A DNA stretch of 64,000 nt from Candidatus Latescibacterota bacterium (GTDB lineage: Bacteria > Latescibacterota > UBA2968 > UBA8231), in NCBI GenBank assembly GCA_965261395.1, contig OZ253462.1, positions 2,944,001 to 3,008,000 on the forward strand, given 5' to 3'. Every line of letters begins with the position of its first letter. The first letter of the stretch is position 1. The notes beneath the pieces are model-generated. The model was not told the origin of the DNA, ran no database searches, and saw only the letters and a program-made list of their open reading frames with translations. This document shows, in pieces, positions 3,818 through 35,402 of this stretch. A program made the position numbers and the translations under genes.

Positions 3818-5341
3818 ATGCGTTCAGTTTTTGCATTTGTACTGCTGCTAGCAGCCCCCCTCCAAGCCGAGTTGCGTCTTTCGACCCTGACCGAAGCCCA
3901 AGTCGGCAATCTGCCCGGCGCACAGCCCAGCGATTTGCGGACGATCTACCATCAGTTCAGCCTCGACTATGCAGTCGCCGATCTCCAGTTCGGAGTTCGC
4001 GGCGAGACCTTCGGCGCTAGCGCCTCCAGCCGCAACTATGGCGAGCTTCTCCAGCGCTCCGCTGTCTATCGCCGGAGTGGCTTCGAGGCCACCGTCGGGA
4101 ATTTCTACACCATCGTCGGCAGCGGCCTGCTCCTCCACGCCTTTGAACTGCCCGGCGTCATCACCGAGGAGCGGGGTCGCCGTCGCCGCTACCAGATCGT
4201 GCGCGACCTCGATGGCGTTCAGGTGCGCTACCGCGCCAAGCGGGCCGAAGTGTTGCTGTTGCGCGGTGCGCCGATCAACAGTGCCCTGCCGCCCGGATTG
4301 GAGGGGATTGACCGTCGGCCGGACGCGCTCCACGCTGGCTCGCTCCAGCTCAAGCCGCACCCGCATTTCGACGTTGGTGTTAGCGCCATCCGCTACCCAG
4401 CCGGCAGGCGGCAAGAAACGAGCGCGGCCTTCAATGCCCGCTGGCGACTCGCGTCTGTGCTGGCTCGCCTCGGCCTCGCCGGAGTCTATGCCGATGTCCA
4501 AGGCGAGTACGCTCAGCGCGATGTGGCGCTCAAGCGCTTCTTTTCGCTCGACCGCAGTTTGGGCCGCGCCCTGTATCTGGCGGTCACCTTGGCATCTGGG
4601 CCGTGGGGATTGAGCTTGGAATACAAAGACTACGAGGATTTTGCCCTCGAACACATCAACAATCCGCCGCCCCTGATCCGCGAACACTCGGCCTATCTCC
4701 TCAACCGCATCACGCACGATGTGCTCGCCGACGACGAGCAGGGCTACCAAGCCGAACTGAGTTACGCCCTACCTAGCGGCCAAACCCTCACCACCAATGC
4801 GACTCGCGCCACGCGCCGCGGCGACCCAGGCGCAGCCGACGACAATATCCTGCGCGAATTCTTTGTGGAGGTGGAGTCGCCCTTGGGGCAACGCGCCGAT
4901 GTGCAGCTTTTTGCCGACTTTAGCCACAATCAGATTCTCCTCGACGACAAGAGCCGCCTCTTGGGCACGCACTGGGAGTGGTTTCCAGACGGGTCCTACA
5001 CCTTCGAGTTCGACGCCCAGTTCCAAGACGTCGATCGGCGGTTCGGCGACCTCGCGCTTCCTTACACCAATCACTACTATGCGCTAGCAGTCCACCGCGC
5101 CCCCAGTCTCTCCGCCGCCGTGCAGATTCAGCGCACCTCCGACGAATTGGAAACCGGGGCCGATCCCTCTGGCATCACTTGGTGGCGGGGCCTCAACATC
5201 GGTGCCGACATTGGCGAGGGCCACATCATCAATGTTTTCGCCGGCCAGCGCCGCTCGGGGCTAGCCTGCACGGCGGGTATCTGCTATGAGGTGCTAGGGT
5301 TCAAGGGCGTCGAAGTCCGGCTGCTCAACCGCTTCTTCTGA
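3818..5341 (+). CDS. putative outer-membrane beta-barrel (DUF6029-like)
   Basis: Signal peptide; VGNFYTIVGSGLLL motif; C-terminal GLACTAGIC and terminal Phe; adjacent to redoxin genes. Confidence 0.6.
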   Translation: MRSVFAFVLLLAAPLQAELRLSTLTEAQVGNLPGAQPSDLRTIYHQFSLDYAVADLQFGVRGETFGASASSRNYGELLQRSAVYRRSGFEATVGNFYTIVGSGLLLHAFELPGVITEERGRRRRYQIVRDLDGVQVRYRAKRAEVLLLRGAPINSALPPGLEGIDRRPDALHAGSLQLKPHPHFDVGVSAIRYPAGRRQETSAAFNARWRLASVLARLGLAGVYADVQGEYAQRDVALKRFFSLDRSLGRALYLAVTLASGPWGLSLEYKDYEDFALEHINNPPPLIREHSAYLLNRITHDVLADDEQGYQAELSYALPSGQTLTTNATRATRRGDPGAADDNILREFFVEVESPLGQRADVQLFADFSHNQILLDDKSRLLGTHWEWFPDGSYTFEFDAQFQDVDRRFGDLALPYTNHYYALAVHRAPSLSAAVQIQRTSDELETGADPSGITWWRGLNIGADIGEGHIINVFAGQRRSGLACTAGICYEVLGFKGVEVRLLNRFF

Positions 5342-21316: not shown

Positions 21317-24300
21317 CGGCTCATCCCCGCGTGTGCGGGAACATATTGCAGAGAGTCGCGGCGTAACAACTTCACCCGGCTCATCCCCGCGTGTGCGGGG
21401 AACATTTAATAGTTTGCCACATAATGTGGTTAACTAGCGGCTCATCCCCGCGTGTGCGGGGAACATACAATGTGAAATCTACGCTGGGGCACCGCATCCG
21501 GTTCATCCCCGCGTGTGCGGGGAACATCACCATTCGCAGATCGTAGTCGTTCACGCTAACGGTTCATCCCCGCGTGTGCGGGGAACATCAGGTTCATCGG
21601 ATATAGAGCGCCAGCGGCGACGGTTCATCCCCGCGTGTGCGGGGAACATTTGGTAGGCAACCCCCCATCATTGGACCAGGCCGGTTCATCCCCGCGTGTG
21701 CGGGGAACATATGCTGATGCTGGCGAGGGCGAAGGGGTTCATCCCCGCGTGTGCGGGGAACATCTCGACAAGGCCCGCGACCGGTCAGCCAAGACCGGTT
21801 CATCCCCGCGTGTGCGGGGAACATATGGTGGAGGTCATAGTCACCCTCTCCAAGCTCGGTTCATCCCCGCGTGTGCGGGGAACATTTGCAGATGTTGACG
21901 GGTGCATAATGCGTATCCGGTTCATCCCCGCGTGTGCGGGGAACATGATGTAAATTTCCTGTGTCGCGCGCCGTCTGCCGGTTCATCCCCGCGTGTGCGG
22001 GGAACATTTCACGCAGGCGGCCAAAGAAGGCAACGTCCGCGGTTCATCCCCGCGTGTGCGGGGAACATTCCCTGGTCTGCCGAACCGAATCGCTAAAATC
22101 CGGTTCATCCCCGCGTGTGCGGGGAACATATTAACGCTCATAGCATCCAGCCCCACCACGCCGGTTCATCCCCGCGTGTGCGGGGAACATGGGGTCAGAA
22201 TACCCATCAGGATATTTCCTTTCGGTTCATCCCCGCGTGTGCGGGGAACATCGCCCCAAGTGGTGCATCATGCACACCAAGGTCGGTTCATCCCCGCGTG
22301 TGCGGGGAACATTGCTCAATCCAAGTCGAACCCGATCTTTCGAGCGGTTCATCCCCGCGTGTGCGGGGAACATCGGCCTCAGTCCCTCTACAATAACATG
22401 ACCATCGGTTCATCCCCGCGTGTGCGGGGAACATCAACAGCTCGAAGACCTCATCGTCAGACAACTCGGTTCATCCCCGCGTGTGCGGGGAACATTGGTG
22501 GTGGTGGCCCTCCGCCGCCGATGTAAACGGTTCATCCCCGCGTGTGCGGGGAACATAGATTATGTATATATCGGCGCAACATCTACGCCGGTTCATCCCC
22601 GCGTGTGCGGGGAACATACCATGGCAACGCAAAACGTATTTCAGATCATCGGTTCATCCCCGCGTGTGCGGGGAACATCCACTTCGGTTTTTTTGAACGC
22701 GAAGGCTTCCCGGTTCATCCCCGCGTGTGCGGGGAACATCCACTTCGGTTTCTTCGAACGCGAGGGTTTTCCGGTTCATCCCCGCGTGTGCGGGGAACAT
22801 ACGACCTAGGATACAATTACAACTCAGCCGGCCGGTTCATCCCCGCGTGTGCGGGGAACATCAAGTCTCAGCCGAGCCCCATTTCTTCTCAGACGGTTCA
22901 TCCCCGCGTGTGCGGGGAACATAAAAACTCGCCTTTTTTGATCGCGTTGAACGCCGGTTCATCCCCGCGTGTGCGGGGAACATAAGCTCGGCCCCATGAC
23001 GTTGCGGTACTCTAACGGTTCATCCCCGCGTGTGCGGGGAACATCTGGGGCTTGAGCCTATGTCGGGGTCGCTTATCGGTTCATCCCCGCGTGTGCGGGG
23101 AACATTCGCAATGCCTTATTGCTTTGCGCGTCAACGTCGGTTCATCCCCGCGTGTGCGGGGAACATCTCCCTGTCGTCAAGGTGAAACAAGGTGCGACCG
23201 GTTCATCCCCGCGTGTGCGGGGAACATTTCGCGCAAGCCCTTTGCCGCTTCTGCGATCTCGGTTCATCCCCGCGTGTGCGGGGAACATTTCGTCAAAGCC
23301 TTTATGCTCGCCCGCAAAGCCGGTTCATCCCCGCGTGTGCGGGGAACATATGCTTGTAACCTTCTGAATGAGGTTGCAAGGCGGTTCATCCCCGCGTGTG
23401 CGGGGAACATTTCCCTATCGAGCAACAGCAGAGAATCAAAGTCGGTTCATCCCCGCGTGTGCGGGGAACATATCTCCTTCTTGACCGCGCTCGCGTCGAT
23501 GTCCGGTTCATCCCCGCGTGTGCGGGGAACATTTCGCATCTGAGCGCGTCCAGCACAAATTTCCCGGTTCATCCCCGCGTGTGCGGGGAACATTTTCGTC
23601 AAAGCCTTTATGCTCGCGTCGATGTCCGGTTCATCCCCGCGTGTGCGGGGAACATATGCAAGCAACCTGCTGAATGAGGTTGCAAGGCGGTTCATCCCCG
23701 CGTGTGCGGGGAACATCTATTGTATTGATTGTATTGAAACGCGAAACACGGTTCATCCCCGCGTGTGCGGGGAACATTAGGGTCAGTATCCTGCGAAGCG
23801 ATGCAATCCTGGTTCATCCCCGCGTGTGCGGGGAACATAAGCAACTGACGTATTGTATTGACGCGAAACACGGTTCATCCCCGCGTGTGCGGGGAACATT
23901 GTAAAGGAATCGCTCGCCGACTCGCTGCCGACGGTTCATCCCCGCGTGTGCGGGGAACATATCGCCAGTCAATGCAGTCCGGTAGAGTCAAGCGGTTCAT
24001 CCCCGCGTGTGCGGGGAACATACGGCGAAACTGCTCGACACCTATGTCGATAGCGGTTCATCCCCGCGTGTGCGGGGAACATACGCCGGGACAATCCGGC
24101 AAAACGCTTTACCACGGTTCATCCCCGCGTGTGCGGGGAACATATACAGATCAGATCAGATCAGATCAGATCAGCCGGTTCATCCCCGCGTGTGCGGGGA
24201 ACATTTTAAAATAGTGGTGGAAAGTGCTTGACAATGCGGTTCATCCCCGCGTGTGCGGGGAACATAAAAGGCCAGCGGTTAAAATTTAACTATTGACCGG

Positions 24301-25424
24301 TTCATCCCCGCGTGTGCGGGGAACATGTTTAACTCCCCTCACGGGAGGAGCCTATCACCGGTTCATCCCCGCGTGTGCGGGGAACATGCGCGCTCGGGGC
24401 TTTTCTCGATGCGCGTTTTCGGTTCATCCCCGCGTGTGCGGGGAACATAGGTAGGCCGTGTACGGCCCGGTTGCCGATACCGGTTCATCCCCGCGTGTGC
24501 GGGGAACATCGGTTTAACTGCCATTGCTGGCAGCCCATCACCGGTTCATCCCCGCGTGTGCGGGGAACATTGCGATAGGGAGCGCGTTTATTGTGCGTGT
24601 TACGGTTCATCCCCGCGTGTGCGGGGAACATTCTCAATTATTGCTTGTGTTGGTATCGGCTACCGGTTCATCCCCGCGTGTGCGGGGAACATCGGTTTAA
24701 CTCCCGTCGCCGGGAGCCCATCACCGGTTCATCCCCGCGTGTGCGGGGAACATTTCTGCAAAGCCTTTATGCTCGTCCTCAGGGCCGGTTCATCCCCGCG
24801 TGTGCGGGGAACATTGTAAAGGAAACGCCCGCCGGCTCGTCGCCGACGGTTCATCCCCGCGTGTGCGGGGAACATTCCGGTTGGAACAAGGTAGGTTTTT
24901 CCTGCTACGGTTCATCCCCGCGTGTGCGGGGAACATGTGTGGGCTGAACTTTGGATCAGCCCGTGCGGCGGTTCATCCCCGCGTGTGCGGGGAACATCCT
25001 TGTGAGTGTGCTGCGTTTCCTGGGCTGAGCGGTTCATCCCCGCGTGTGCGGGGAACATAATATCGGCCAGCTTGGCCGATACAATGTTCGCGGTTCATCC
25101 CCGCGTGTGCGGGGAACATTGAGCAACTTCGGCAATCAGCAAGGCAAGGGCCGGTTCATCCCCGCGTGTGCGGGGAACATCCTCTATCGTCAAGTATCTC
25201 TGGGTGCTGCGTCGGTTCATCCCCGCGTGTGCGGGGAACATCGGGTGCTAATGGCGTTGAATAGTGCGAGTAGCGGTTCATCCCCGCGTGTGCGGGGAAC
25301 ATCTGGTATTCTTCGTCCAGGTGTTTGCGAGCATCGGTTCATCCCCGCGTGTGCGGGGAACATAATACCCGCACTCACATGAGGTAAATTTCAATCGGTT
25401 CATCCCCGCGTGTGCGGGGAACAT
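21317..25424 (-). CRISPR. type I-E CRISPR array, 68 repeats / 67 spacers
   Basis: 29-bp repeat CGGTTCATCCCCGCGTGTGCGGGGAACAT (+) = ATGTTCCCCGCACACGCGGGGATGAACCG (-), 61-bp period, mostly 32-nt spacers (one 24 nt, one 33 nt). Degenerate CGGCTC repeats at the 21317 end mark the trailer. Confidence 0.99.
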
Positions 25425-25529
25425 ACTTAATCGTAACTGCTTGCTACAGTTTAGGTTATATGCCATGCAAAATAGCTACCGACTATTTGACCCCCGATTC
25501 ACCCACTCCACATATGCCGAGAACATACT
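25425..25529 (-). promoter_or_regulatory. CRISPR leader
   Basis: AT-rich non-coding segment between the cas2 stop and the conserved end of the array. Confidence 0.8.
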
Positions 25530-25808
25530 TCACTCAGGCAAAAAAGATACGAGTCGAAGACCGTCAAAATCCACAGGTATCCGGCGGTTTGTGCCAAAGG
25601 TTTCAAACTCAAACCCCGCGTCATTGGGGGCGGCCCAAGCAATCACAGCATCACCGTCGCCGATGAGCTCGCACACATTGTCGCGGATCATAGCGCGGGT
25701 CTTTGCCGAGTAGTTGCCGATATAGACACCGGCTCGAAGTTCCAGAAGCCAAACCGCGAGCCGGCCCCGCAGGCGCGGCGGCACATTATTAGTCACCACT
25801 ATCATCAT
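25530..25808 (-). CDS. cas2: type I-E Cas2
   Basis: PPRLRGRLAVWLLELRAGVYIG...VDFDGLRLVSF. Confidence 0.97.
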   Translation of the reverse strand: MMIVVTNNVPPRLRGRLAVWLLELRAGVYIGNYSAKTRAMIRDNVCELIGDGDAVIAWAAPNDAGFEFETFGTNRRIPVDFDGLRLVSFLPE

Positions 25809-26752
25809 CCTCGATGGCCCTCATCTCCGCTTGAAGGTGGATCGGCAAAGGCCGGGCCTACCGCATCATCTGGCATTTTCGGCGGCGGCAACTCGCCCGC
25901 TGCGAGCACTTCTCCGATGGTTGGAATCAGTCGCCTGAGCAGCTTGGTTCTGCGGAACGTGTCCCGACACGCCAAGCGCACTTCGCGCACAGGCTCGGCA
26001 GAACGCCCCTTCGCGTGCTGTCCCGCAATGCGAAACGCTGTCGGCACCGCCGTCTCAAATTTGAATAAATCGGCAATGTCGTACACAAAGGAGAGGGGTT
26101 TACCAGTATGCAAGAAGCCGACTGCTGGGGCATATCCAGCCGCGAGCACGGCGGCTTCCGTAATGCCGTAGAGGCAGGCAGTTGCTGCCGAGAGGCAGCG
26201 GTTGGGCACATCGGAGAAGTTCCAATCCGAAGGATCGTAGCTGCGCCTTTTCCACTGTACTCCAAACTGCCGCGCCAAATTCTCATAAAGCGCACGTACA
26301 CGCGCCCCCTCAATTCCGCGAAGCTGTTCGACAGAACGGCGTTGCGGCGCTCGCTCGTCAAATCGGATTTGATACATCCGCCGCACGATCTTCAGCCGAG
26401 CGTCGGGGTCAAGCGCGAGGCGGCACTGCCACAGAAGCCTGTCGGACCGGGCACCTCCCGGCTGACCAGCCGCGTATAGGCGCACCCCGGCTTCACCGAC
26501 CCATATCAGCAAAGTACCGACCCGTGCGGCGAGTGCCACTGCAGCATGACTGACCCGCGCACCAGGTTCGAGCATGATGCAAGCCAACCCGCCAACGGGG
26601 ATGTGCGTCCGCACCCCCTTTACATCTACGAGCACAAAAGCTCCATCGAGTACGTCGAGTTGGCCCTTCTCCACAAAAACGATAGAGGTGCGGTCCTTTA
26701 TGGGGATCGGCTTGGGGGGCGGAGCACCCGGCATTCTGTCAGGGCTAGCCAT
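25805..26752 (-). CDS. cas1: type I-E Cas1
   Basis: LEPGARVSHAA, VGEAGVRLYA, QLRGIEGARVR, GFLHTGKPLSFVYDIAD. Confidence 0.98.
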   Translation of the reverse strand: MASPDRMPGAPPPKPIPIKDRTSIVFVEKGQLDVLDGAFVLVDVKGVRTHIPVGGLACIMLEPGARVSHAAVALAARVGTLLIWVGEAGVRLYAAGQPGGARSDRLLWQCRLALDPDARLKIVRRMYQIRFDERAPQRRSVEQLRGIEGARVRALYENLARQFGVQWKRRSYDPSDWNFSDVPNRCLSAATACLYGITEAAVLAAGYAPAVGFLHTGKPLSFVYDIADLFKFETAVPTAFRIAGQHAKGRSAEPVREVRLACRDTFRRTKLLRRLIPTIGEVLAAGELPPPKMPDDAVGPAFADPPSSGDEGHRG

Positions 26753-26775
26753 CAAGCGATCCTGCGTATAAGCGA

Positions 26776-26865
26776 TGGTTCATCCCCGCATGTGCGGGGA
26801 ACACAGAGGTAGTCATCAGGCGATCCTGCGCATGAGTGGGTCATCCTCGCGTGTGCGGGGAACAT
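26776..26865 (-). CRISPR. mini-array (degenerate repeat-32 nt spacer-degenerate repeat) at the cas6e/cas1 junction
   Basis: Repeats 26776-26804 and 26837-26865; spacer 26805-26836 matches 26741-26772 at 26/32. Confidence 0.9.
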
Positions 26866-27608
26866 CTGCGTATAAGCATCAGGCCGCAGCCAAATGCCTT
26901 GCCGCGCCCGAATCCCTGCCGAAGGCGGGCGAGAAACGAGTTAGGCTCGGTTATGGTCAAAGCACCTTTGAGGTCGAATATGCCCAAAGTGCCGAATTTC
27001 CCACCGCGCCGTGCGAAACGCTCGGCTCGATAGCCTTCGAGCATCAGTGCGTCAAGGCAGAATCCGTATGCTTCGGCCCGCGCCGCTAGCCAGTCGTAGG
27101 CCGCCTTTTTGGCAAACTGCATCCGATACTTGGCGCGGTTGAGGGATTCATCCCCGCGTGTGCGGGGAACATTCTTGAGCAAGTCCATGGCCACATCGCA
27201 GCGTTGCCGTATGGCCGGTTCATTCCCGTGTGTGCGAGAAACTTTCCGATCGACCGTGGCGTTAAGGCGCAGATCGAACGCCAGCCGGTCTCCTGGCGAG
27301 AGTGTCGGCTCGAAGGGCTTCGTCTCGATAGCGAAGAAGGGAGAGTCTTCCAAAGGCTTGGGGCCGAGAAGATAGTACCGCCCGCGCTGGCGGTCGGCCC
27401 GCCAAAGAAACGCGGATTTCGGCGTACCGGCAGTCCGGCTCTGCTCTACCTCAGTACGCACATTTGGCGGGATGACCGTCCAGATCAGCCGGTGATCTAC
27501 CGCGAGGCGGTCAGACGACTTTGATGGCTGAAGGACCTGTAGCAGGGGAGCTATGTCTGCGGCGTCGCGCCGGAGCGTAAGACGCGAAAAGTGGAGTGGC
27601 TCACTCAT
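26841..27608 (-). CDS. cas6e: Cas6e (Cse3/CasE) with repeat-derived insertions
   Basis: HRLIW, LAFDLRLNAT, GFGRGKAFGCGLML Gly-rich loop. Confidence 0.95.
   Translation of the reverse strand: MSEPLHFSRLTLRRDAADIAPLLQVLQPSKSSDRLAVDHRLIWTVIPPNVRTEVEQSRTAGTPKSAFLWRADRQRGRYYLLGPKPLEDSPFFAIETKPFEPTLSPGDRLAFDLRLNATVDRKVSRTHGNEPAIRQRCDVAMDLLKNVPRTRGDESLNRAKYRMQFAKKAAYDWLAARAEAYGFCLDALMLEGYRAERFARRGGKFGTLGIFDLKGALTITEPNSFLARLRQGFGRGKAFGCGLMLIRRCSPHTRG
27144..27244 (-). CRISPR. two CRISPR repeats embedded in frame in the cas6e CDS, 43 nt apart
   Basis: 27144-27172 matches consensus at 27/29; 27216-27244 at 24/29. Confidence 0.85.
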
Positions 27609-28321
27609 TGCGAAGCCTCCTCTTGGTCAGTGGGAACGTATTCGTATTCGCGCCGTTGCCCGAACTGCCAGCTCGTGCGGTCGCCCGGCTCGTCCATCCG
27701 CAGTCGCATCCGCAAGGAAGCATCGAGAGGACCGAGGTCCGCCCGATCCTCCACGGCGATTAGGCCATTCGGCCCATCGCTATGGCGCTTGAACGCATCA
27801 ACGACCGTTTGTGCTTCAATGATCTCCGGCGCGAGTGGGTGGGACAGTGGGCAGGACTTGCGCCCTAAATACAATGTATAAGCTGGCTTCTCAAACCCAG
27901 CTTTGAGGTCCCGCAACGAGTATCGTCCGCCCGATATGGCTCGGTAAGCCGCCTGATAGCGCACATCTGTGCGGTACTCTCGGTGGGTGATACTCGTCGC
28001 AAGGTCCAAGGGATGGGAAAGTGCCTCCGCTCTAGTTCGGGGATGTCCCTTGGCCGAAGGCAGCGACTGGTAAGTGTGAAAATCCGTCACCAACGTCCCG
28101 GCGCACAGGGTGCGAGTAGCGACGCGGAAAGAGGCAGCAAGCGCCCGCTGCCCTTCCGCATCGGCGCGATCAATACCCAGCGCCGCGCCCGCCATCCCCA
28201 AAAGGGCAGATCGCGTTGGACGGTCGGCCGTGCCACGCCGCACATTGCCTGCCTCTTCGCCGAAGCTGGCAAAGGGTGCGGCCAAGGTAATAATTAACCA
28301 TTTCCTCGGTTCACCATTCAT
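27605..28321 (-). CDS. cas5: Cas5e (CasD)
   Basis: LAAPFASFGE...PTRSALLGMAGAALG, DFHT, REY, LYLGRKSCP. Confidence 0.96.
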   Translation of the reverse strand: MNGEPRKWLIITLAAPFASFGEEAGNVRRGTADRPTRSALLGMAGAALGIDRADAEGQRALAASFRVATRTLCAGTLVTDFHTYQSLPSAKGHPRTRAEALSHPLDLATSITHREYRTDVRYQAAYRAISGGRYSLRDLKAGFEKPAYTLYLGRKSCPLSHPLAPEIIEAQTVVDAFKRHSDGPNGLIAVEDRADLGPLDASLRMRLRMDEPGDRTSWQFGQRREYEYVPTDQEEASQ

Positions 28322-28353
28322 TTTAGTCCCTTCGGGAATATATGTGGTTCGTG

Positions 28354-28443
28354 CGGTTCGTCCCCGCGGATACGGGGAACATCCTACGTGTAGTTGGATG
28401 TCGTCGCTTCAATCCGGTTCATCCCCGCAGGTGCGGGGAACGT
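28354..28443 (-). CRISPR. mini-array (repeat-32 nt spacer-repeat) between cas7 and cas5
   Basis: CGGTTCGTCCCCGCGGATACGGGGAACAT (28354-28382), spacer 28383-28414, CGGTTCATCCCCGCAGGTGCGGGGAACGT (28415-28443). Confidence 0.9.
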
Positions 28444-28462
28444 TTTGCCAAATAGCAAATTG

Positions 28463-29521
28463 CTACAGTTCCTCCGCTGCGAAGGCGGCTAGCTCCTCCA
28501 ACATGGCACTATCCTCTTCACCTACATGGAGTTCGCTGGCTTCCCAATCGTCGTCGTAGGTCTTCGCAAAGGCGGTACGCTGCTTCTTGAGTACCTTTAC
28601 GGACTCCCCGAGTTGGTCTTCCGATTTTACCGGCTTGGTGAAGGCACTAGCCAAGCTGCGAGGTTGGCTATCCCCGCGCTCTAACAACATGTATTCGGCG
28701 CGTACGTGATTGGCGAAGCTGTTTTTCTTACCGGAAGGCGATGCGGTCGCCGCAGCGCGTACTAGCGCGGAGAGCGCACGGCCTGCCAGTTCTGTATCGC
28801 TCGCAAGATTTTCCAGCAGCAGGACCCTATTTACGCAGATGTAGAGATAGAAGACGCCAGCGCCGAAACCCGCCTCTCCGATGAAACCCGCGCCCGCATC
28901 CTCTTCTGGGGTCTTCAGATCGTCAACAGCCGTGTAGTAGTCATCTTCAATATCGACTCGGTTGGTGGTAAAGGCATGAGCCACTTGCACGGCGGCATCG
29001 CGGTTGAAGTCGGGGTTGTCAGCCAACATGCGCCCGAACATAGCAATGTCCACGGCACCGTCGGCAGTGCTTAGGACCTGTTTCGCCAGTTCCTTTTCCT
29101 TCGGTAAGGTTTCCCCGCTCAGTGCCTTTTCTGCCAAATCGAATGCAGCAGCGCGTTCCTCCGGCGAGATGAAGGCTAGCTGTTCGGTATAGGCCGGATT
29201 TGGGTCTTTCTCATTCTTTACTTTACCGAACAGAGCAGCGATGGTCCGGGCGATTTCGAGCGCCTTGTCCTCCGAAGCACCCTTTTCTAGCAGATGCTCT
29301 CGCACCTTGTCGCCCATACGCTGCGTGCGCTCGCCTAGCTTTCCCGTTAGGGCGGACCGGAAAGCGTCGTCCGTGCGGATGGCGCGTTTGAGGGCTTGGC
29401 TGGAAATGCGCATCCGCGACACACCGCCGATGAAAGCGGTCTTGGGACGGCCGAGGTCGTCTCGGTTGGGGTTAGACGGTGGATAGGCTGTCAGAACGTG
29501 CATTTGCACAAAGCGGCTCAT
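28463..29521 (-). CDS. cas7: Cas7e (Cse4/CasC)
   Basis: YPPSNPNRDDLGRPK, RISSQALKRAIR, DIAMFGRM, DYYTAVDD, PSGKKNSFA. Confidence 0.97.
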   Translation of the reverse strand: MSRFVQMHVLTAYPPSNPNRDDLGRPKTAFIGGVSRMRISSQALKRAIRTDDAFRSALTGKLGERTQRMGDKVREHLLEKGASEDKALEIARTIAALFGKVKNEKDPNPAYTEQLAFISPEERAAAFDLAEKALSGETLPKEKELAKQVLSTADGAVDIAMFGRMLADNPDFNRDAAVQVAHAFTTNRVDIEDDYYTAVDDLKTPEEDAGAGFIGEAGFGAGVFYLYICVNRVLLLENLASDTELAGRALSALVRAAATASPSGKKNSFANHVRAEYMLLERGDSQPRSLASAFTKPVKSEDQLGESVKVLKKQRTAFAKTYDDDWEASELHVGEEDSAMLEELAAFAAEEL

Positions 29522-30090
29522 AGTTGAGTCTCCTCTTGGGGTTGGGTGTTCTCTGCGGCATCGGTCCGCCGCGTGTGATAGTAATCAAAGGTCCATTTCT
29601 GCCGAGTCTGGTCGTTAAAGAAAAGCACATCGCCGATAAAGCGAGGAACGTCGAATGGCGCATCGCCCAAAATAGCAAGGGTCCGGCGCAGTGCCCGTGC
29701 GAACATGTCCACATCAGTGCCATCCTTGAGCAGGTTGCTGAAGCGCATGGGCGACAGGCGTGGACGGGCGTCGCCTTTGGGGATGGAACCATCCCACGTG
29801 AGGCCCAAGGCGTCAGCGAAGGGGGGGAGATGGGCGGTCCTCTCGGAGGGTTTAACCCGCGCAAGGGCCATAGCCAGCACGGCGAGGCGCTGCTCAAGCG
29901 CGTGGCCGGCGGTAGCCTTTTCATGCACACTGGCGATCAACCTGTGGGTTTCTGGCTCTAAGAGGGCGTCGAATACGCTTTCGCAGCGCTTCAGCCGCGC
30001 CCGTGCACCCCGGTCTCCGTGGTCCGCGTGAAGCGATACCCACCAGTTCACCACTGCATTGACGGTAGGGTTATTTCGGTTGAGCTGCAT
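29518..30090 (-). CDS. cas11: Cas11e (Cse2/CasB)
   Basis: DRGARARLKRC, LSPMRFSNLL, WTFDYY; position between cas8e and cas7. Confidence 0.92.
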   Translation of the reverse strand: MQLNRNNPTVNAVVNWWVSLHADHGDRGARARLKRCESVFDALLEPETHRLIASVHEKATAGHALEQRLAVLAMALARVKPSERTAHLPPFADALGLTWDGSIPKGDARPRLSPMRFSNLLKDGTDVDMFARALRRTLAILGDAPFDVPRFIGDVLFFNDQTRQKWTFDYYHTRRTDAAENTQPQEETQL

Positions 30091-31748
30091 TAAGCGGTCT
30101 CCTTTTTGGTTTTGGATTTTTTCTCTGGCAAAGGAAGTTCGAGCTTGTCGTAAAGCGACTTGCTCTGCTTGGTCCAGCCAGCAAAGGTTGCGTTCAAGAT
30201 GCCGTAGGCATTGACGATTGTCTTGGCCTTCTCGGCGTCTTGCAAGGGCACGGGTGCCAGTCGGTCAAAAGTCGCAAGGGCTGCGCGGCGCATGATACCT
30301 AGCCAGTGCCGTGCGAGAGCGGTCTGGTCGAAGCCCCCATCTTCGGGCATTTCTTGGAGCAGATCGTCGAGCAGGTGGTGGAATTGGTCCTCGGTTGCGT
30401 CGAAGAAATCAGCCCGCGCTTGGTCGAGAATCCCCTTATCGTTTGAGGCATTCTTCTGGCCGCTGAAAAGTGCCTTTTTCAAGGCTGTTAACAACTGAGA
30501 AACCGCTTGATCGGCGGCTTCGGAGAAATGTCGGGCGAGATCGTCGAGAGCCTGTTGTTGATCGGATGTATTCGCCAGATGCAAAGGCTCCTCGGCGATG
30601 AGATAGGCGATTGCTTCCATGTTGTTCATGGCCCAACCGCCAACGCGGATGCGAGCATCGGCCGCTTGTTTATTCTGGCTAAGGGAATGGGAGCGATTAT
30701 TCTTGGAGAGCTTGATATTTGTGGGCTGTTCAGCCAGCTTGCCATCCTTGCTCCCTACCGTGACGGCAACCCAGTCTCGATAGCCAAAGCGTCCTGATTT
30801 TGGCTTGGCCGAATACGGCTCCCCTGCCTCTTTCAGGCGGCGGTAGGGCGTCAGCGGATGCTGCCATAGCCCATAATTTGTGCCGTAGGGCCTCTGGATA
30901 AATCCGGTGACCAGCGGTTCTTTTCTGCCGGTCATGGAGCAGATGCCCGGCTCGCTGGAAAAGACTAGCTGGATGCGGCGCGGCATACCGAAATACGCCT
31001 GCAAGGGGTGGGCGTCTGCTAGAGATACAGTACGACTTTTTTCCGATGTGAGTGTCGGGGCCATCCAAGGCAGGGCCTTGGGCAACTCATCTATTGGGAG
31101 TCGTTTATCGCAAGGCACCACATTGGCGAAAATTTTGTGCCACAAAGGCACGGGCGTTGCATCGTCATTAGTCGCCGGAACGACCAGTGCCGTCAAAGGC
31201 CCGCCTCCACGCATGGAAGTGCGGTTCCCGGCACCGCCGGCCGGCGCGTAGGCTTGCAGGGTGTACAGCGTCATGGCCGCAGCCGGTAGGCCAAGGGCAG
31301 CATAGCGGTTGCGGTGAGTCAATAGGTCCGAGTTTTTGCGCTGGCCGTTTTGCCCTGGTGTGTCGATGAGCAGTAGTTCAATAGGAGTTTCGTTGCCTTG
31401 CAGGGGCTCATAGTCCTGTAGGAAGCGCGGCCCTTCGCCGTTGAGATAGAAGGCAGAAACAAGAGGGGCGAGCTTTTCGGCGAGCGCGTCTCTATCCGGC
31501 GGATTGGTCCAAAAAGGACGCCAGTCGTCCTCTTCGCGGATATCGAAGGCCAACGAAATCACGCCGATGCAGAACTCGAAGCTCGCCATGTTGAAATCCG
31601 GGCGCGGCCAGTTAAACTCGACCGGGTAGTCTTCATCCAAGCCGTTGCTTTTGGGTCCAGCCACTAGTTCGGGAAAGGCAAGCCATCTCTGTGCTCCAGA
31701 TCGCATGACGACCGGGAGAAAGGGATCACTGAGCAGATTAAAAGTCAT
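30090..31748 (-). CDS. cas8e: Cas8e (Cse1/CasA)
   Basis: FNLLSDPFLPV, PRFLQD, APAGGAGNRTSMRGGGPLT, MPRRIQL, HPLTPY; AAGGAG RBS. Confidence 0.96.
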   Translation of the reverse strand: MTFNLLSDPFLPVVMRSGAQRWLAFPELVAGPKSNGLDEDYPVEFNWPRPDFNMASFEFCIGVISLAFDIREEDDWRPFWTNPPDRDALAEKLAPLVSAFYLNGEGPRFLQDYEPLQGNETPIELLLIDTPGQNGQRKNSDLLTHRNRYAALGLPAAAMTLYTLQAYAPAGGAGNRTSMRGGGPLTALVVPATNDDATPVPLWHKIFANVVPCDKRLPIDELPKALPWMAPTLTSEKSRTVSLADAHPLQAYFGMPRRIQLVFSSEPGICSMTGRKEPLVTGFIQRPYGTNYGLWQHPLTPYRRLKEAGEPYSAKPKSGRFGYRDWVAVTVGSKDGKLAEQPTNIKLSKNNRSHSLSQNKQAADARIRVGGWAMNNMEAIAYLIAEEPLHLANTSDQQQALDDLARHFSEAADQAVSQLLTALKKALFSGQKNASNDKGILDQARADFFDATEDQFHHLLDDLLQEMPEDGGFDQTALARHWLGIMRRAALATFDRLAPVPLQDAEKAKTIVNAYGILNATFAGWTKQSKSLYDKLELPLPEKKSKTKKETA

Positions 31749-31770
31749 TGATATCTCCTTAAAATATATA

Positions 31771-31821
31771 ACTAACCAACAGCTTACTACATACTCTAAA
31801 GAGGCAATCGTACCTTGTCAA
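31771..31821 (-). promoter_or_regulatory. sigma70-type promoter of cas8e with adjacent ATG PAM and crRNA-like RNA target
   Basis: TTGACA (31821-31816), 17 bp, TAGAGT (31798-31793), then ATG (31792-31790) and TAGTAAGCTGTTGGTTAGT (31789-31771). Confidence 0.8.
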
Positions 31822-31842
31822 GGGCAAGTTGCGGTCCATCAT

Positions 31843-31919
31843 TAATTAATCCCCGTGTGTACGGGGAACACGTTAGCCGACAGCATACTACGGCTCATTC
31901 CCGCGTCTGCGGGACAACA
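31843..31919 (-). ncRNA. CreR/CreA-like crRNA-like regulatory RNA (degenerate repeats with a 19-nt spacer)
   Basis: Repeats 31891-31919 (overlaps the cas3 stop) and 31843-31871 with compensated stems; spacer TAGTATGCTGTCGGCTAAC matches the cas8e promoter region. Confidence 0.85.
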
Positions 31920-34633
31920 AATCTAAAGCCCAGTCGGGCACAGTACATAAAATAACCGTCATCCTTCGCCCCTTCCAATCGCACCCTACTGCCCCCTTCT
32001 ACCACGGCTATCAATATTTCGCGTTCCCACTCCGGCCAGTCGCTTTTGGCCTGCTCTTGAAGGGCTTGGTCCTCGGGCGATGGCGAGGCTCCAGCGAGAA
32101 AATTCTCCCGTACCCGGATTTCAGACAAGGCCCAAGCCCTGTTGGGATCGTCGTCGGGTACCGTGCACCAAGGAATAAGACGATCTTCCTCTATACGAGC
32201 CAAACGCAACATAACGGTCGGCTCTCCCAGCCGAGTGCCAATATCTTCTGTGCCGCTCAATTCCGTCGGCAGGCTACCGTAGCCCTCTTCTAGGCTGACG
32301 ACGTTAAATCGGCCCAGCGAGCGACTGCCCATTTCCTTCCCTTCGTCTTCGATTTGCTTTTCTTCAAGGGCTGGCGGCACATCCCCATTGGCGTAAACGT
32401 ATTCAATCAACGGGCGAAAACTTTCCGGCGTGTCAATACATCCAGCGTCGGACAGGGCCTTCGCGCTGCGCCACATCACGCCGGCATTTTGATAGACAAA
32501 CGCTGCCTTGCCGAGTGCCGGCTCAAGCCAGTTTTGGTCTTCTACCTGATCCGGGTCCGGCGAGACTATGAGGGTATGCGGACTCTCTACAGGGCGGCTT
32601 TCCGGTGGACGCTTGTCCAAATGACGCCACATCCGACCAGCGCGCTGGATGATAAGATCCACTGGCGCGAGGTCCGAAATGACGAGATCAAAGTCGAGGT
32701 CGAGGCTTTGCTCAACCACCTGCGTGGCTACAAGGATATGGCCGGCCCGGCCTGTCGCTTTGGCGTCGCGCCCGAATCGGCGCAATACATCATTTTCTAT
32801 GACCTGCCTATCGCTTTGGGCAAACCGAGCGTGGAAGAGGTGAATGTGATCTGGGTTGTCCATTTGGCCCACAAGCGATTCATATACAGCGATGGCCTCA
32901 TCTACTGCGTTGCAGATGACCAGCACGGCCGCTTCCTCTTTTGCTGCGGAGAGAGCTCGTGTCTCGGCGGTTATTCGGTCGGGCAGGCGTTCTACCGTTA
33001 CGCTACGACGCAACGCAGAATCGAATCCCGACTCGCATTCCTGTACTCCGCCGATTGTGGCCGAGGTGAGCAGCGGGTACGCCTCACTGCATAGTTGATC
33101 GCTCAGATCTTCTGGGTCGCGCAAGCCGAGACCCTTGGCAAACGCCTCTGCCATATCGCGACGTTGCTGCAGAGATAAGGTCGCAGAGAGCACTATGGCG
33201 GAGCCGCCGTTTTGGGCGTGAAGTTCCAGCAGCGCGGAAAGTTCCTCGCCCATATAGGCATCAAAGCAATGGGCTTCATCAACTATGAGGATGCGGCCAG
33301 CCAGCCCGTATTGACGCAAGGTTAGATGTCTTTTAGGGAGGATCGAGAGAAAGGCTTGGTCAATGGTCCCCGCTCCGACATCTGCGTAAAAGGCTTTTCT
33401 TCGGTCGTCTGCAATCCATTGGGCGCAAAAGGCGGATGCGGTTTCATCCTCGCTGCCATTGGCCATGTCAGTGGAGTTGACGATGGCGCGGAACGCCTCG
33501 GACAGGTTCGACCTGCCGTGTGCCAAGACGAGTGAGAGGTCTTCGGAGGCTGAAGTTTCAAACAGCTTCTGGTAAGTCACCGCCAGCCGCTCGTACATAG
33601 CGTTGGCCGTTGCCATAGTCGGCAGCGCAAAGTACAGACCCTCGCCTTTGCCCGCCGCCATCATCCGGGCTGCGAGCATGATGGCCGCTTCTGTTTTACC
33701 GGCCCCTGTGGTGTCTTCTAAGATGAACAACTGCGCTCCGTCCTTGAGCGGTGCTTCTTCCGCCAGTTTCTGCATGGGTCTTGGATGAGGGGCAGCTTGT
33801 GGAGCAAAACTAGCATAACTCGGACGGGACTCCGGGGACTGGGCCAGTAACCCCTTTCCCACTAGGGCTTTTTCGGCCTGAGTAAGCGCCCACTCCCAAT
33901 AGTCCTCCAGCCTCGTATCGACCGATTCAAAAGAGAAGTAATCGGAGTCTGAACCGACCCAGTCGGCCAGTGTGACAAGCCCTGACAAGCGCCAAGACCA
34001 CTGCGCCGTCTGCTTCTGCTTTTCGAGAGACGATAGAGGCAGAGGCTCTATCAGGTTCCGGAGCATACAAAAGGCAGTATGAGCCGCGTCCACGCATTCC
34101 TCACCAAGCTGCTGGTCGCGCCGAGCTTTGCCTGGATCGGCATTTACTTCATCCTGTCCCTCGGGTGGTCGTCCATGGTGCCCCGCAATGGCAGCAATGA
34201 TCGGTGCTATATCATAAGGGATGCTAGGGAATAAGCTGGCGAACTCTTGGGATATTGGCTCGGCCCTGAGAAGGATAGCCGTGTTGCGCCAATGACCACG
34301 GTCGGCGATTTCTCTCTTCGGGCCAAGGACCTGCTCTGGCCACAATTGGGGTACCTTCGCCTGAAAGCTGCGTGAAAATTTGCCAAGATCGTGTATGCCA
34401 GCCAGAAAAGCAGTGATCTTGGATAAGCACTCTGGACTCGCTTTCAACAAAGCGGCCTCGCGCTCAAGACGGGCAGGATTCAATTGCTGCCATCGCAGGG
34501 CGACAGCAGCGACATCCATCAAATGATGTAAGACAGGCTTATAGCTACGTGTATCATTGAATACAGTTTCCGAGGAATTGCCAGCACTACGAAGCGTCTT
34601 GCCCCAAAATTCCAAGAGGCGGGCGGCTTCCAT
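31895..34633 (-). CDS. cas3: Cas3 HD nuclease-helicase
   Basis: HLMDVAAV, HDLGK, HHG, DWVGS, TTGAGKTE, DEAH, LSAT, ATQVVEQSLDLDFD, QRAGR; likely start MEAARLL 1 nt after the upstream stop. Confidence 0.97.
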   Translation of the reverse strand: MEAARLLEFWGKTLRSAGNSSETVFNDTRSYKPVLHHLMDVAAVALRWQQLNPARLEREAALLKASPECLSKITAFLAGIHDLGKFSRSFQAKVPQLWPEQVLGPKREIADRGHWRNTAILLRAEPISQEFASLFPSIPYDIAPIIAAIAGHHGRPPEGQDEVNADPGKARRDQQLGEECVDAAHTAFCMLRNLIEPLPLSSLEKQKQTAQWSWRLSGLVTLADWVGSDSDYFSFESVDTRLEDYWEWALTQAEKALVGKGLLAQSPESRPSYASFAPQAAPHPRPMQKLAEEAPLKDGAQLFILEDTTGAGKTEAAIMLAARMMAAGKGEGLYFALPTMATANAMYERLAVTYQKLFETSASEDLSLVLAHGRSNLSEAFRAIVNSTDMANGSEDETASAFCAQWIADDRRKAFYADVGAGTIDQAFLSILPKRHLTLRQYGLAGRILIVDEAHCFDAYMGEELSALLELHAQNGGSAIVLSATLSLQQRRDMAEAFAKGLGLRDPEDLSDQLCSEAYPLLTSATIGGVQECESGFDSALRRSVTVERLPDRITAETRALSAAKEEAAVLVICNAVDEAIAVYESLVGQMDNPDHIHLFHARFAQSDRQVIENDVLRRFGRDAKATGRAGHILVATQVVEQSLDLDFDLVISDLAPVDLIIQRAGRMWRHLDKRPPESRPVESPHTLIVSPDPDQVEDQNWLEPALGKAAFVYQNAGVMWRSAKALSDAGCIDTPESFRPLIEYVYANGDVPPALEEKQIEDEGKEMGSRSLGRFNVVSLEEGYGSLPTELSGTEDIGTRLGEPTVMLRLARIEEDRLIPWCTVPDDDPNRAWALSEIRVRENFLAGASPSPEDQALQEQAKSDWPEWEREILIAVVEGGSRVRLEGAKDDGYFMYCARLGFRFVVPQTRE

Positions 34634-34634
34634 C

Positions 34635-35402
34635 TCAGCGGCCCATCCACCCGCCATCGACGATTGCGATGGTCCCATGGACGTAGTCGGCTGCTCGCGA
34701 CGACAGCCACACCACCGCGCCTTTTAAGTCGTCCGGCGTGCCCCACCGGCCCGCTGGAATCCTCACCAGTAGTTGCTCGTTGCGCACGGGGTCGTCGCGC
34801 AGGGCCTGATTGTTGTCGGTGGCGATATAGCCGGGGGCAATGGCATTGACGTTGACCCCGCGACCGGCCCATTCGTTGGCCAGCGCCATCGTCAACTGCC
34901 CGATCCCGCCCTTGGCCGCGGCATAGCCCGGCACTGTGATCCCGCCTTGGAAGGTCAGCACCGAAGCGGTAAAGACGATCTTGCCCCGGCCGCGGGAGAG
35001 CATCTGCTTGCCGAATTCCCGCGCCAGCACGAACTGCGCGTTTAAGTTGACCTCGATGACGTGATCCCAGTCTTCGTCTCCATGTTCCTCAGCCGGGGCG
35101 CGCCGAATGGTACCGGCATTGTTGATGAGGATGTCGATTGGGCCGACCTCGGTGTTGACCTGCTCGACGAAGGCGCGGACCGCTGCCCGGTCGCTGAAAT
35201 CGCAAGCGTATCCTTTGAAGCGCTTGCCGCGCTTGGCAATGTCTTTGCCGACCTCGGAGTCTACTTCCAGCGAGGCGCTGACGCCGACGATATCTGCGCC
35301 CGCCTCGGCCAATGCTTGCGCGAACCCGCGTCCGATGCCTCGACGGCATCCGGTGACCAGCGCCGTTTGGCCGTCGAGCTTAAAGAGATCCAAAATCCCC
35401 AT
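34635..35402 (-). CDS. SDR oxidoreductase (2-dehydro-3-deoxy-D-gluconate 5-dehydrogenase KduD-like)
   Basis: TGCRRGIG, NNAGTIRR, FQGGITVPGYAAAK, DGGWMGR. Confidence 0.85.
   Translation of the reverse strand: MGILDLFKLDGQTALVTGCRRGIGRGFAQALAEAGADIVGVSASLEVDSEVGKDIAKRGKRFKGYACDFSDRAAVRAFVEQVNTEVGPIDILINNAGTIRRAPAEEHGDEDWDHVIEVNLNAQFVLAREFGKQMLSRGRGKIVFTASVLTFQGGITVPGYAAAKGGIGQLTMALANEWAGRGVNVNAIAPGYIATDNNQALRDDPVRNEQLLVRIPAGRWGTPDDLKGAVVWLSSRAADYVHGTIAIVDGGWMGR

Follow-up and report, generated by a model that had tools for sequence, protein, structure and literature searches.

Repeat-spacer-repeat units inside the type I-E cas operon of a Latescibacterota bacterium: a candidate autorepressor and candidate Cas6e cleavage sites

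Why should the repeats of a CRISPR array recur inside the genes that serve it? A 64-kb stretch of contig OZ253462.1 from a Candidatus Latescibacterota bacterium (the window; all coordinates below are window positions unless otherwise indicated) carries on its minus strand a type I-E cas operon in which four pairs of degenerate array repeats enclose spacer-like stretches. We call these units A (cas3-cas8e junction), B (cas7-cas5 junction), C (inside cas6e) and D (cas6e-cas1 junction), and write the two repeats of each as R_A1, R_A2 and so on. Regulatory mini-arrays such as CreR and CreA are common, yet the match of their spacers to the adjacent promoter is unexplained. We looked at what each unit is, what it might do and where it might have come from, comparing this genome (G000; 6.55 Mb, one contig) with related I-E loci (L015 to L021 and L102). 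On balance, we consider it probable that the operon holds one mature regulator, unit A, and three younger relics, B, C and D, made of the same material, with hairpins that are probably cut by Cas6e.

Eight array-like repeats in the operon

Both strands of the window were scanned with the 29-nucleotide (nt) array repeat, allowing up to 10 mismatches (Hamming distance). Exactly eight copies were found outside the array, all of them inside the cas operon, in the sense of the cas genes and the array and in four pairs, as an earlier note on this DNA had described. In each unit, two degenerate repeats surround a spacer-like stretch, of 19 nt in A, 32 nt in B, 43 nt in C and 32 nt in D. Elsewhere in the genome, 8 mismatches are reached at three more sites and 7 or fewer at none, in line with the 3.5 such sites that a composition model expects genome-wide; for the cas strand within the operon, the model expects 0.0024.

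The hairpins have largely survived these changes. The 35 mismatches break 3 of 56 stem pairs, compared with 12.7 +/- 2.6 under random placement (P about 5e-5), which confirms the claim that changes fall mostly in loops and flanks or are compensated. Three stem changes are fully compensatory, two of them in unit A, and two others give G-U wobbles. All eight copies fold in the canonical register, six of them at -11 to -14.4 kcal/mol, R_C1 at -5.3 and R_D1 at -7.4. A search of Rfam with positions 25400-35000 gave no match at E up to 1. The resemblance of three spacers to nearby cas DNA in the same orientation was also recovered, with 14/19 matches at 31771-31789 for A, 20/32 at 28521-28552 for B and 26/32 at 26741-26772 for D. 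Predicted Cas6e cuts were placed from the 8-nt 5' handle of I-E CRISPR RNAs (crRNAs), at what we take to be the exact bond cut within the repeat.

Unit A and the start of cas8e

Unit A and its surroundings comprise the following features, with mismatches counted here and below against the array repeat.
31891..31919, minus strand: R_A1; 8 mismatches, with a compensatory change of C-G to T-A that keeps the stem; predicted Cas6e cut 31899/31898
31872..31890, minus strand: spacer A, 19 nt
31843..31871, minus strand: R_A2; 7 mismatches, with a compensatory T-A pair and a degenerate 3' part
31793..31821, minus strand: promoter-like TTGACA-17-TAGAGT upstream of cas8e; 10 of 12 consensus positions
31771..31792, minus strand: ATG protospacer-adjacent motif (PAM; 31792-31790) and target of spacer A (31789-31771), from a genome-wide seed and PAM search

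Spacer A matches its target at positions 1-5, 7-11 and 13-14, with ATG directly before it, and this is the sole site in the genome that combines a 10/10 seed (positions 1-5 and 7-11) with a PAM. The target lies directly after the promoter-like site and before the cas8e ribosome-binding site. That promoter-like site is the best on either strand of 25400-35000, and its TTGACA is kept in seven loci. The ATG and the pairing with spacer A are kept in seven of the eight related loci compared, mismatches falling at positions 6, 12 and from 15 on; L018 has an additional mismatch at position 9, and L020 has diverged. Two covariations of spacer and target keep the seed paired: at position 5, L102 has G:G where the other loci have A:A, and at position 9, L015 has C:C where four others have T:T. 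A search of public sequencing runs returned two RNA libraries, with small shares, and five further runs of unspecified kind. One contig of 470 nt in RNA library X1, which shows 30 differences and comes from a relative, spans the end of cas3, unit A and the start of cas8e, although this is no proof of transcription.

These features closely resemble those of CreR in the Salmonella enterica I-E system, as far as the available part of its description goes. CreR consists of a degenerate repeat, a short spacer and a second degenerate repeat between cas3 and cas8e (casA); its spacer pairs in part with a site at the cascade promoter that has a PAM beside it, its first repeat retains the 5' handle and its second the hairpin (10.1101/2023.03.10.532045). 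Unit A shares the position, the architecture, the promoter target and the split between handle and hairpin (10.1101/2023.03.10.532045). It differs in its 19-nt spacer, in its PAM, which is ATG and not AAG as for CreR, and in that cas3 ends within R_A1 and takes its stop codon from this repeat. The analysis thus supports unit A as a CreR-type autorepressor guide acting on the cas8e promoter, every sequence-level mark of such a guide being present. Its RNA, once processed by Cas6e, would load into Cascade and pair, where the cas8e transcription unit starts, with the target that follows the ATG. This pairing would be too short for attack by Cas3, and the complex would repress cas8e-cas11-cas7 and the genes downstream in proportion to free Cascade.

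In seven of nine loci, the cas3 stop is the TGA at positions 23-25 of the first unit A repeat. As this stop, in the handle portion of the repeat, lies 3' of the expected Cas6e bond, a cut at R_A1 would strip the cas3 mRNA of its stop codon, a detail that we have not found described.

Three observations concern the history of this junction. In L015 (G008; oriented positions 4860-4997), three repeats precede cas8e, with a 19-nt CreR-like spacer followed by a 32-nt spacer between near-perfect repeats, and unit A may still have taken up a spacer there. Identity of L019 to G000 is 68-80% across cas3 and 88-90% from unit A on (compared over window positions 32250-31950), which suggests a recombination breakpoint at the cas3-cas8e border of L019. 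The G005 bin holds two I-E loci, L019 with unit A only and L020 with a degenerate A and B; it is assigned to another phylum than the remaining relatives and may be mixed.

Units B, C and D: probable copies of operon sequence and possible Cas6e sites

Unit B separates cas7 from cas5.
28415..28443, minus strand: R_B1; 3 mismatches, perfect stem and 5' handle; predicted cut 28423/28422
28383..28414, minus strand: spacer B, 32 nt; 27/32 matches to AAG-flanked cas7 3' sequence of L018 and L021
28354..28382, minus strand: R_B2; 4 mismatches, one G-U wobble; predicted cut 28362/28361
28521..28552, minus strand: mutated remnant of the spacer B protospacer; the AAG of the sister alleles reads GAC here, and 3 nt are missing

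It is present in G000, L016, L017 and L020 (three of nine related loci) and absent from L015, L018, L019, L021 and L102. Without it, the cas7 stop and the cas5 start overlap as ATGA in L015, L018 and L021. In both L018 and L021, AAG precedes the source of spacer B in exact register. The source is altered in the carriers: G000 has lost the AAG and 3 nt, and L016, L017 and L020 keep the AAG and differ at positions 6-11. Over the 90 nt of the unit, 8-9 differences separate G000 from the other carriers, compared with 21-36% at fourfold-degenerate sites of cas5 and cas7 (one-sided Fisher P 0.02 to 2e-6), and no stem pair is broken. No PAM-flanked target beyond chance was found for it in the genome, nor any internal promoter on the cas strand in a scan for promoter-like sites. 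In our reading, unit B has been kept by selection, most likely as a Cas6e site that would part cas8e-cas11-cas7 from cas5-cas6e-cas1-cas2. Between the cas7 stop and R_B1 lie 22 nt (28444-28465) with a small inverted repeat, TTTGC...GCAAA; L017 and L020 have this stretch unchanged, and L016 has part of it in duplicate.

Unit C lies within the cas6e coding sequence.
27216..27244, minus strand: R_C1, in cas6e; 5 mismatches, weak stem, perfect 5' handle; encodes a beta-hairpin tip
27173..27215, minus strand: 'spacer' C, 43 nt of native cas6e coding sequence
27144..27172, minus strand: R_C2, in cas6e; 2 mismatches, perfect hairpin; encodes a low-confidence loop; predicted cut 27152/27151

The 'spacer' of unit C is ordinary cas6e coding sequence (A-I-R-Q-R-C-D-V-A-M-D-L-L-K), present in every relative and preceded by AAG in L016 and L021 and by AAA in L017-L020. 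The two repeats stand in place of two variable Cas6e loops. Judged from more distant Cas6e sequences, the repeat-free gene is the ancestral state, and the repeat-derived version is shared by L015 alone, where both hairpins are gone (at least 8 mismatches). The view of C as a guide unit was therefore not upheld, its inner stretch being native cas6e and its hairpins having decayed in the sole other carrier. Random decay of the stems in homologous operons had been named in advance as an outcome that would count against a regulatory system, and for unit C that is what we found.

Unit D separates cas6e from cas1.
26866..26879, minus strand: cut-off start of the junction protospacer; ATG PAM and first 11 nt, ended by R_D1
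26837..26865, minus strand: R_D1; 3 mismatches, one stem pair broken; supplies the last 9 cas6e codons and the stop
26805..26836, minus strand: spacer D, 32 nt; 26/32 matches to the sequence after R_D2 (cas1 start)
26776..26804, minus strand: R_D2; 3 mismatches, perfect hairpin; predicted cut 26784/26783
26741..26772, minus strand: full-length copy of the junction protospacer at the cas1 start, preceded by TCG, not ATG

This unit is absent from all nine related loci, and in each of the seven relatives aligned, the end of cas6e and the start of cas1 share a TAATG or TGATG overlap. G000 alone has 104 extra nt at this junction, consisting of a repeat, a 32-nt spacer, a repeat, TC and a 12-nt duplicate of the preceding sequence, so that the 12 nt at 26877-26866 recur at 26773-26762. 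In all relatives, ATG stands before the junction that spacer D copies. Since the insertion, the ATG-flanked copy has been only 11 nt long, mismatched at seed position 3, and TCG stands before the full copy. A period of six among the spacer D mismatches (positions 6, 18, 24 and 30) was considered as Cascade-type pairing. This was rejected, since 3, 6 and 18 fall on third positions of cas6e codons, and the bases at 24 and 30 agree with alleles of relatives.

The idea that all units release guides that target the operon is thus supported for unit A, with its unique seed and PAM site, and not for the others. Sites with a 10/10 seed and a PAM numbered 1, 5 and 1 in 13 Mb for B, C and D, with weak overall matches, which is the level expected by chance. 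Unlike CreR, none of the three has a PAM-flanked, seed-paired promoter site, their nearby copies lacking the PAM or the seed. Conservation in related operons was found for A and, in its subclade, for B, and not for C or D.

Where did these three units come from? Their inner stretches copy protospacers of the operon that carry AAG, AAG and ATG, for B, C and D respectively, in exact register in sister alleles. By chance, PAMs at all three would occur with a probability of about 5e-4, and placement of all three within 140 nt of the source with one of about 3e-5. This register and this proximity indicate that the adaptation machinery chose the B, C and D spacers and that a local homology-dependent event placed them. 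Such exact-register, PAM-flanked copies at most 140 nt away point to local capture, not to drift of a duplicated array unit. B, C and D would then be repeat-flanked copies of the operon's own protospacers, fixed at their source or within 140 nt of it, and the sources would have been disarmed, by mutation of the target for B, by replacement of the PAM with a repeat end for C and by splitting of the target for D, so that none of the three units would have a DNA target left to use.

A source for such copies may be array-templated repair of a self-inflicted break, a hypothesis that would account for where the units lie, for the missing PAM and for the 12 duplicated nt. A repeat-flanked spacer in the nearby array would be the only repair template that cannot be cleaved. 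Extended to all four units, this idea gives an age series of mini-array birth, in which a self-spacer attacks the operon, the break is repaired from the array copy, and a unit is left beside a protospacer that has lost its PAM. Most units would then decay, as C did in L015, some would stay as Cas6e sites, like B, and one next to a promoter would mature into a CreR, like A; incidentally, Cas6e would come to control both Cas3 and itself through removal of stop codons and cuts within cas6e. We regard the full series as unlikely. A search for donors, in which 473 array spacers of eight loci were compared with eight cas operons, gave only chance matches of 14-19 nt. Primed adaptation set off by the partial target of unit A was also considered as a supply of self spacers. 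Protospacers in the genome itself yielded three partial matches for PAM inference, all to spacers of relatives, which told nothing about the PAM. A comparison of breakpoints showed that the operons are mosaic, and the candidate pattern of recombination breakpoints at the units was rejected, as identity shifts near a unit only in L019, near A.

Cleavage of the hairpins by Cas6e is plausible because cas6e is intact and its conserved His39 is kept. The protein matches TIGR01907 (E 8e-27), and H39 and the glycine-rich loop, G232-M244, are invariant in 20 sequences. H39 is presumably the catalytic residue, by analogy with CasE of Escherichia coli. In the structure model (predicted local distance difference test score, 85.9), the repeat-coded residues, which form the beta-hairpin tip, the loop and the C-terminal tail, are the least confident, and the protein probably tolerates them. 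Cas6e is thus plausibly active. With six of the eight strong hairpins remaining (R_C1 and R_D1 are weakened), the enzyme probably cuts the cas mRNA at those sites. Cuts would uncouple cas7 from cas5 and cas6e from cas1, gene pairs that overlap in loci without the units. Others would fall within the cas6e frame or remove the stop codons of cas3 and cas6e. As R_C2 is a perfect hairpin in the cas6e frame, Cas6e would cut its own message there.

Competing explanations, known systems and the rest of the locus

Several points weigh against the interpretation of A as a mature regulator and of B, C and D as captured protospacers whose hairpins Cas6e cuts. Spacer A has only 19 nt, and Cascade may not load so short an RNA here. 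The low divergence of unit B could reflect recent exchange between mosaic operons, the flanking 22 nt being identical, and the unit lies about 70 nt beyond its protospacer, not in it, a placement that the interpretation does not account for. The PAM set used (AAG, ATG, AGG, GAG and TAG) is our assumption from the E. coli I-E system and may not be that of this one. The main arrays of the eight loci searched retain no donor for B, C or D. On the matter of length, the available part of another I-E report gives a regulatory spacer of 24 nt and a crRNA 5' handle of 8 nt (10.1101/2024.10.29.618823).

As an alternative, B, C and D may be scars left by recombination between array and operon, neutral or mildly harmful and without any RNA role, whose stems are intact only because they are young. 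The restriction of C and D to one or two loci, the decay of C in L015 and the stem-breaking changes already present in R_C1 and R_D1 speak for this, as do the mosaic operons and the recombination between spacers seen in the array. Nevertheless, broken pairs are four times below expectation and three changes are compensatory (albeit two of them in unit A), and unit B is kept in four loci at no more than one third of the divergence at fourfold sites. In addition, perfect hairpins in a transcribed operon would hardly escape Cas6e, so that some effect on the mRNA is likely even if unselected. We consider this explanation somewhat unlikely.

The earlier note had proposed that all four units form a selected, multilayer autoregulatory circuit, whose guides bind the operon and tune interference, Cascade stoichiometry and adaptation separately. 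In keeping with this, stem retention is far above chance, all units are sense oriented and placed at borders of functional modules, three spacers resemble nearby operon DNA and unit B is conserved in a subclade. However, B, C and D lack a PAM-flanked seed match beyond chance: the PAM-flanked copy of D is mismatched at seed position 3 and only 11 nt long, its full copy being TCG flanked, and the inner stretch of C is the gene itself, its hairpins lost in L015. Moreover, D occurs in none of the nine related loci, and the I-E survey described below found no such units outside the genus. A circuit of this kind is quite improbable.

Misjoining of array sequence into the operon during assembly is a negligible possibility, for although repeats are a classic cause of misassembly and many short array contigs of sequencing runs X3 and X4 fell on the internal repeats as false joints, every unit keeps the frame or register of intact genes, other genomes also carry A and B, one X3 contig covers 26700-32000 with 0 differences (X3 may be the source of the assembly), and contigs of X4, from a different study, bridge C and D, B, and A with 0 differences, which rules out the chimera that the note had allowed for.

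To see how unusual these positions are, we surveyed 56 loci with an array and five cas genes for repeat-like matches outside the arrays. Nineteen had one at or just before the cas3-cas8e junction, two at cas7-cas5, both from the same genus (L016 and L017), and one at cas11-cas7, a marginal match with 8 mismatches; none had one inside cas6e or at cas6e-cas1. In a metagenome survey of 80 loci with a cas6e relative (43 with an array), where many contigs were short, matches were found only before cas8e or after cas1 and cas2. Hence no units at the positions of B, C and D were found outside the genus in the 56 and 80 I-E loci surveyed, coverage of the junctions being incomplete.

The 19 matches among 56 loci agree with the findings of Shmakov et al., who detected a mini-array in about 19% of bacterial I-E loci, mostly beside cas3 (10.1101/2023.03.03.530964). 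Those mini-arrays have a PAM-flanked target in the cas8 promoter, with mismatches tolerated at every sixth position (10.1101/2023.03.03.530964). Their sites are long intergenic regions beside cas3, or beside cas6 in type I-B, and the accessible part of the paper reports none at cas7-cas5, within cas6e or at cas6e-cas1, although its supplementary tables might list some (10.1101/2023.03.03.530964). The origin proposed there is duplication of a terminal array unit, in contrast with the capture of local PAM-flanked sequence suggested here (10.1101/2023.03.03.530964). From what is available of the CreR description, B, C and D also differ from CreR in lacking a promoter target.

In the type I-B system of Haloarcula hispanica, the crRNA-like RNA of CreTA lies between cas6 and cas8 and represses a neighboring promoter through Cascade (10.1101/2023.03.10.532045, 10.1101/2023.03.03.530964). 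Like the units here, it is encoded between cas genes. As presented in the accessible parts of those papers, CreA guards a toxin gene, whereas the target of unit A precedes cas8e itself; no toxin was seen by the units, and no search for one was made.

Engineered Cas6 or Csy4 hairpins cut synthetic operon mRNAs into separate cistrons. A hairpin between cistrons that gives independent expression is the effect that we propose for B and D, the difference being that those systems were engineered. In the literature searched, which left out supplementary tables, we found no mini-arrays at cas7-cas5, in cas6e or before cas1, and neither a Cas6 enzyme that cuts its own cas mRNA at an embedded repeat nor a naturally repeat-punctuated cas operon. 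The claim that no locus with such units has been described thus fits the literature searched for the positions of B, C and D only, the kind and position of A being in print. The locus offers a natural candidate case in which Cas6e would cut cas mRNA, its own transcript among the targets, along with the stop codons of cas3 and cas6e. If it does occur, such cutting would add a post-transcriptional layer of CRISPR control that we have not found described.

The system around the units is complete, with cas3, cas8e, cas11, cas7, cas5, cas6e, cas1e and cas2e in one operon.
31895..34678, minus strand: cas3 (open reading frame and NCBIfam Cas3 models); stop TGA at 31897-31895, positions 23-25 of R_A1
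30090..31748, minus strand: cas8e (cse1; open reading frame and NCBIfam, as for the genes below unless stated)
29518..30090, minus strand: cas11 (cse2)
28463..29521, minus strand: cas7
27605..28321, minus strand: cas5
26841..27608, minus strand: cas6e; 255 amino acids, intact, His39 invariant; stop TGA at 26843-26841, positions 23-25 of R_D1
25805..26755, minus strand: cas1; TTG at 26755 listed as start, ATG at 26752
25530..25808, minus strand: cas2
21317..25424, minus strand: main CRISPR array downstream of cas2; 68 repeats, of which 63 are exact, 4 have one change and 1 has six

Seven of the eight Cas proteins score above the curated cut-off of type I-E NCBIfam models; for Cas3, only the generic domain models cas3_core and cas3_HD are passed. 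The array, the sole one in the genome, consists of a 29-nt palindromic repeat and 32-nt spacers with a period of 61 nt. The full gene set and this 29/32-nt array identify the locus as type I-E.

The array itself shows signs of rearrangement. Its terminal repeat, at 21317, is the one with six changes, and around 21682-21763, near the old end of the array, repeats are spaced 53 nt apart instead of 61, which corresponds to a shortened spacer. The spacer in 23594-23655 is chimeric, starting as the spacer at 23288 and ending as that at 23471, joined at a common GCTCGC, and the next one (23655) is a variant of the spacer at 23349 (compared regions, 23288-23349 and 23471-23532). It seems that a block of two spacers was duplicated and then diverged, about 306 nt apart. 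Within 22651-22800, two adjacent spacers represent one protospacer in variants of about 80% identity, a pattern that repeated acquisition against targets that escape would be expected to leave. Lastly, a genomic site far from the CRISPR locus (C1:325920-325948) matches an array spacer of L021 at 28 of 29 positions, and possibly belongs to a mobile element common to the genus.

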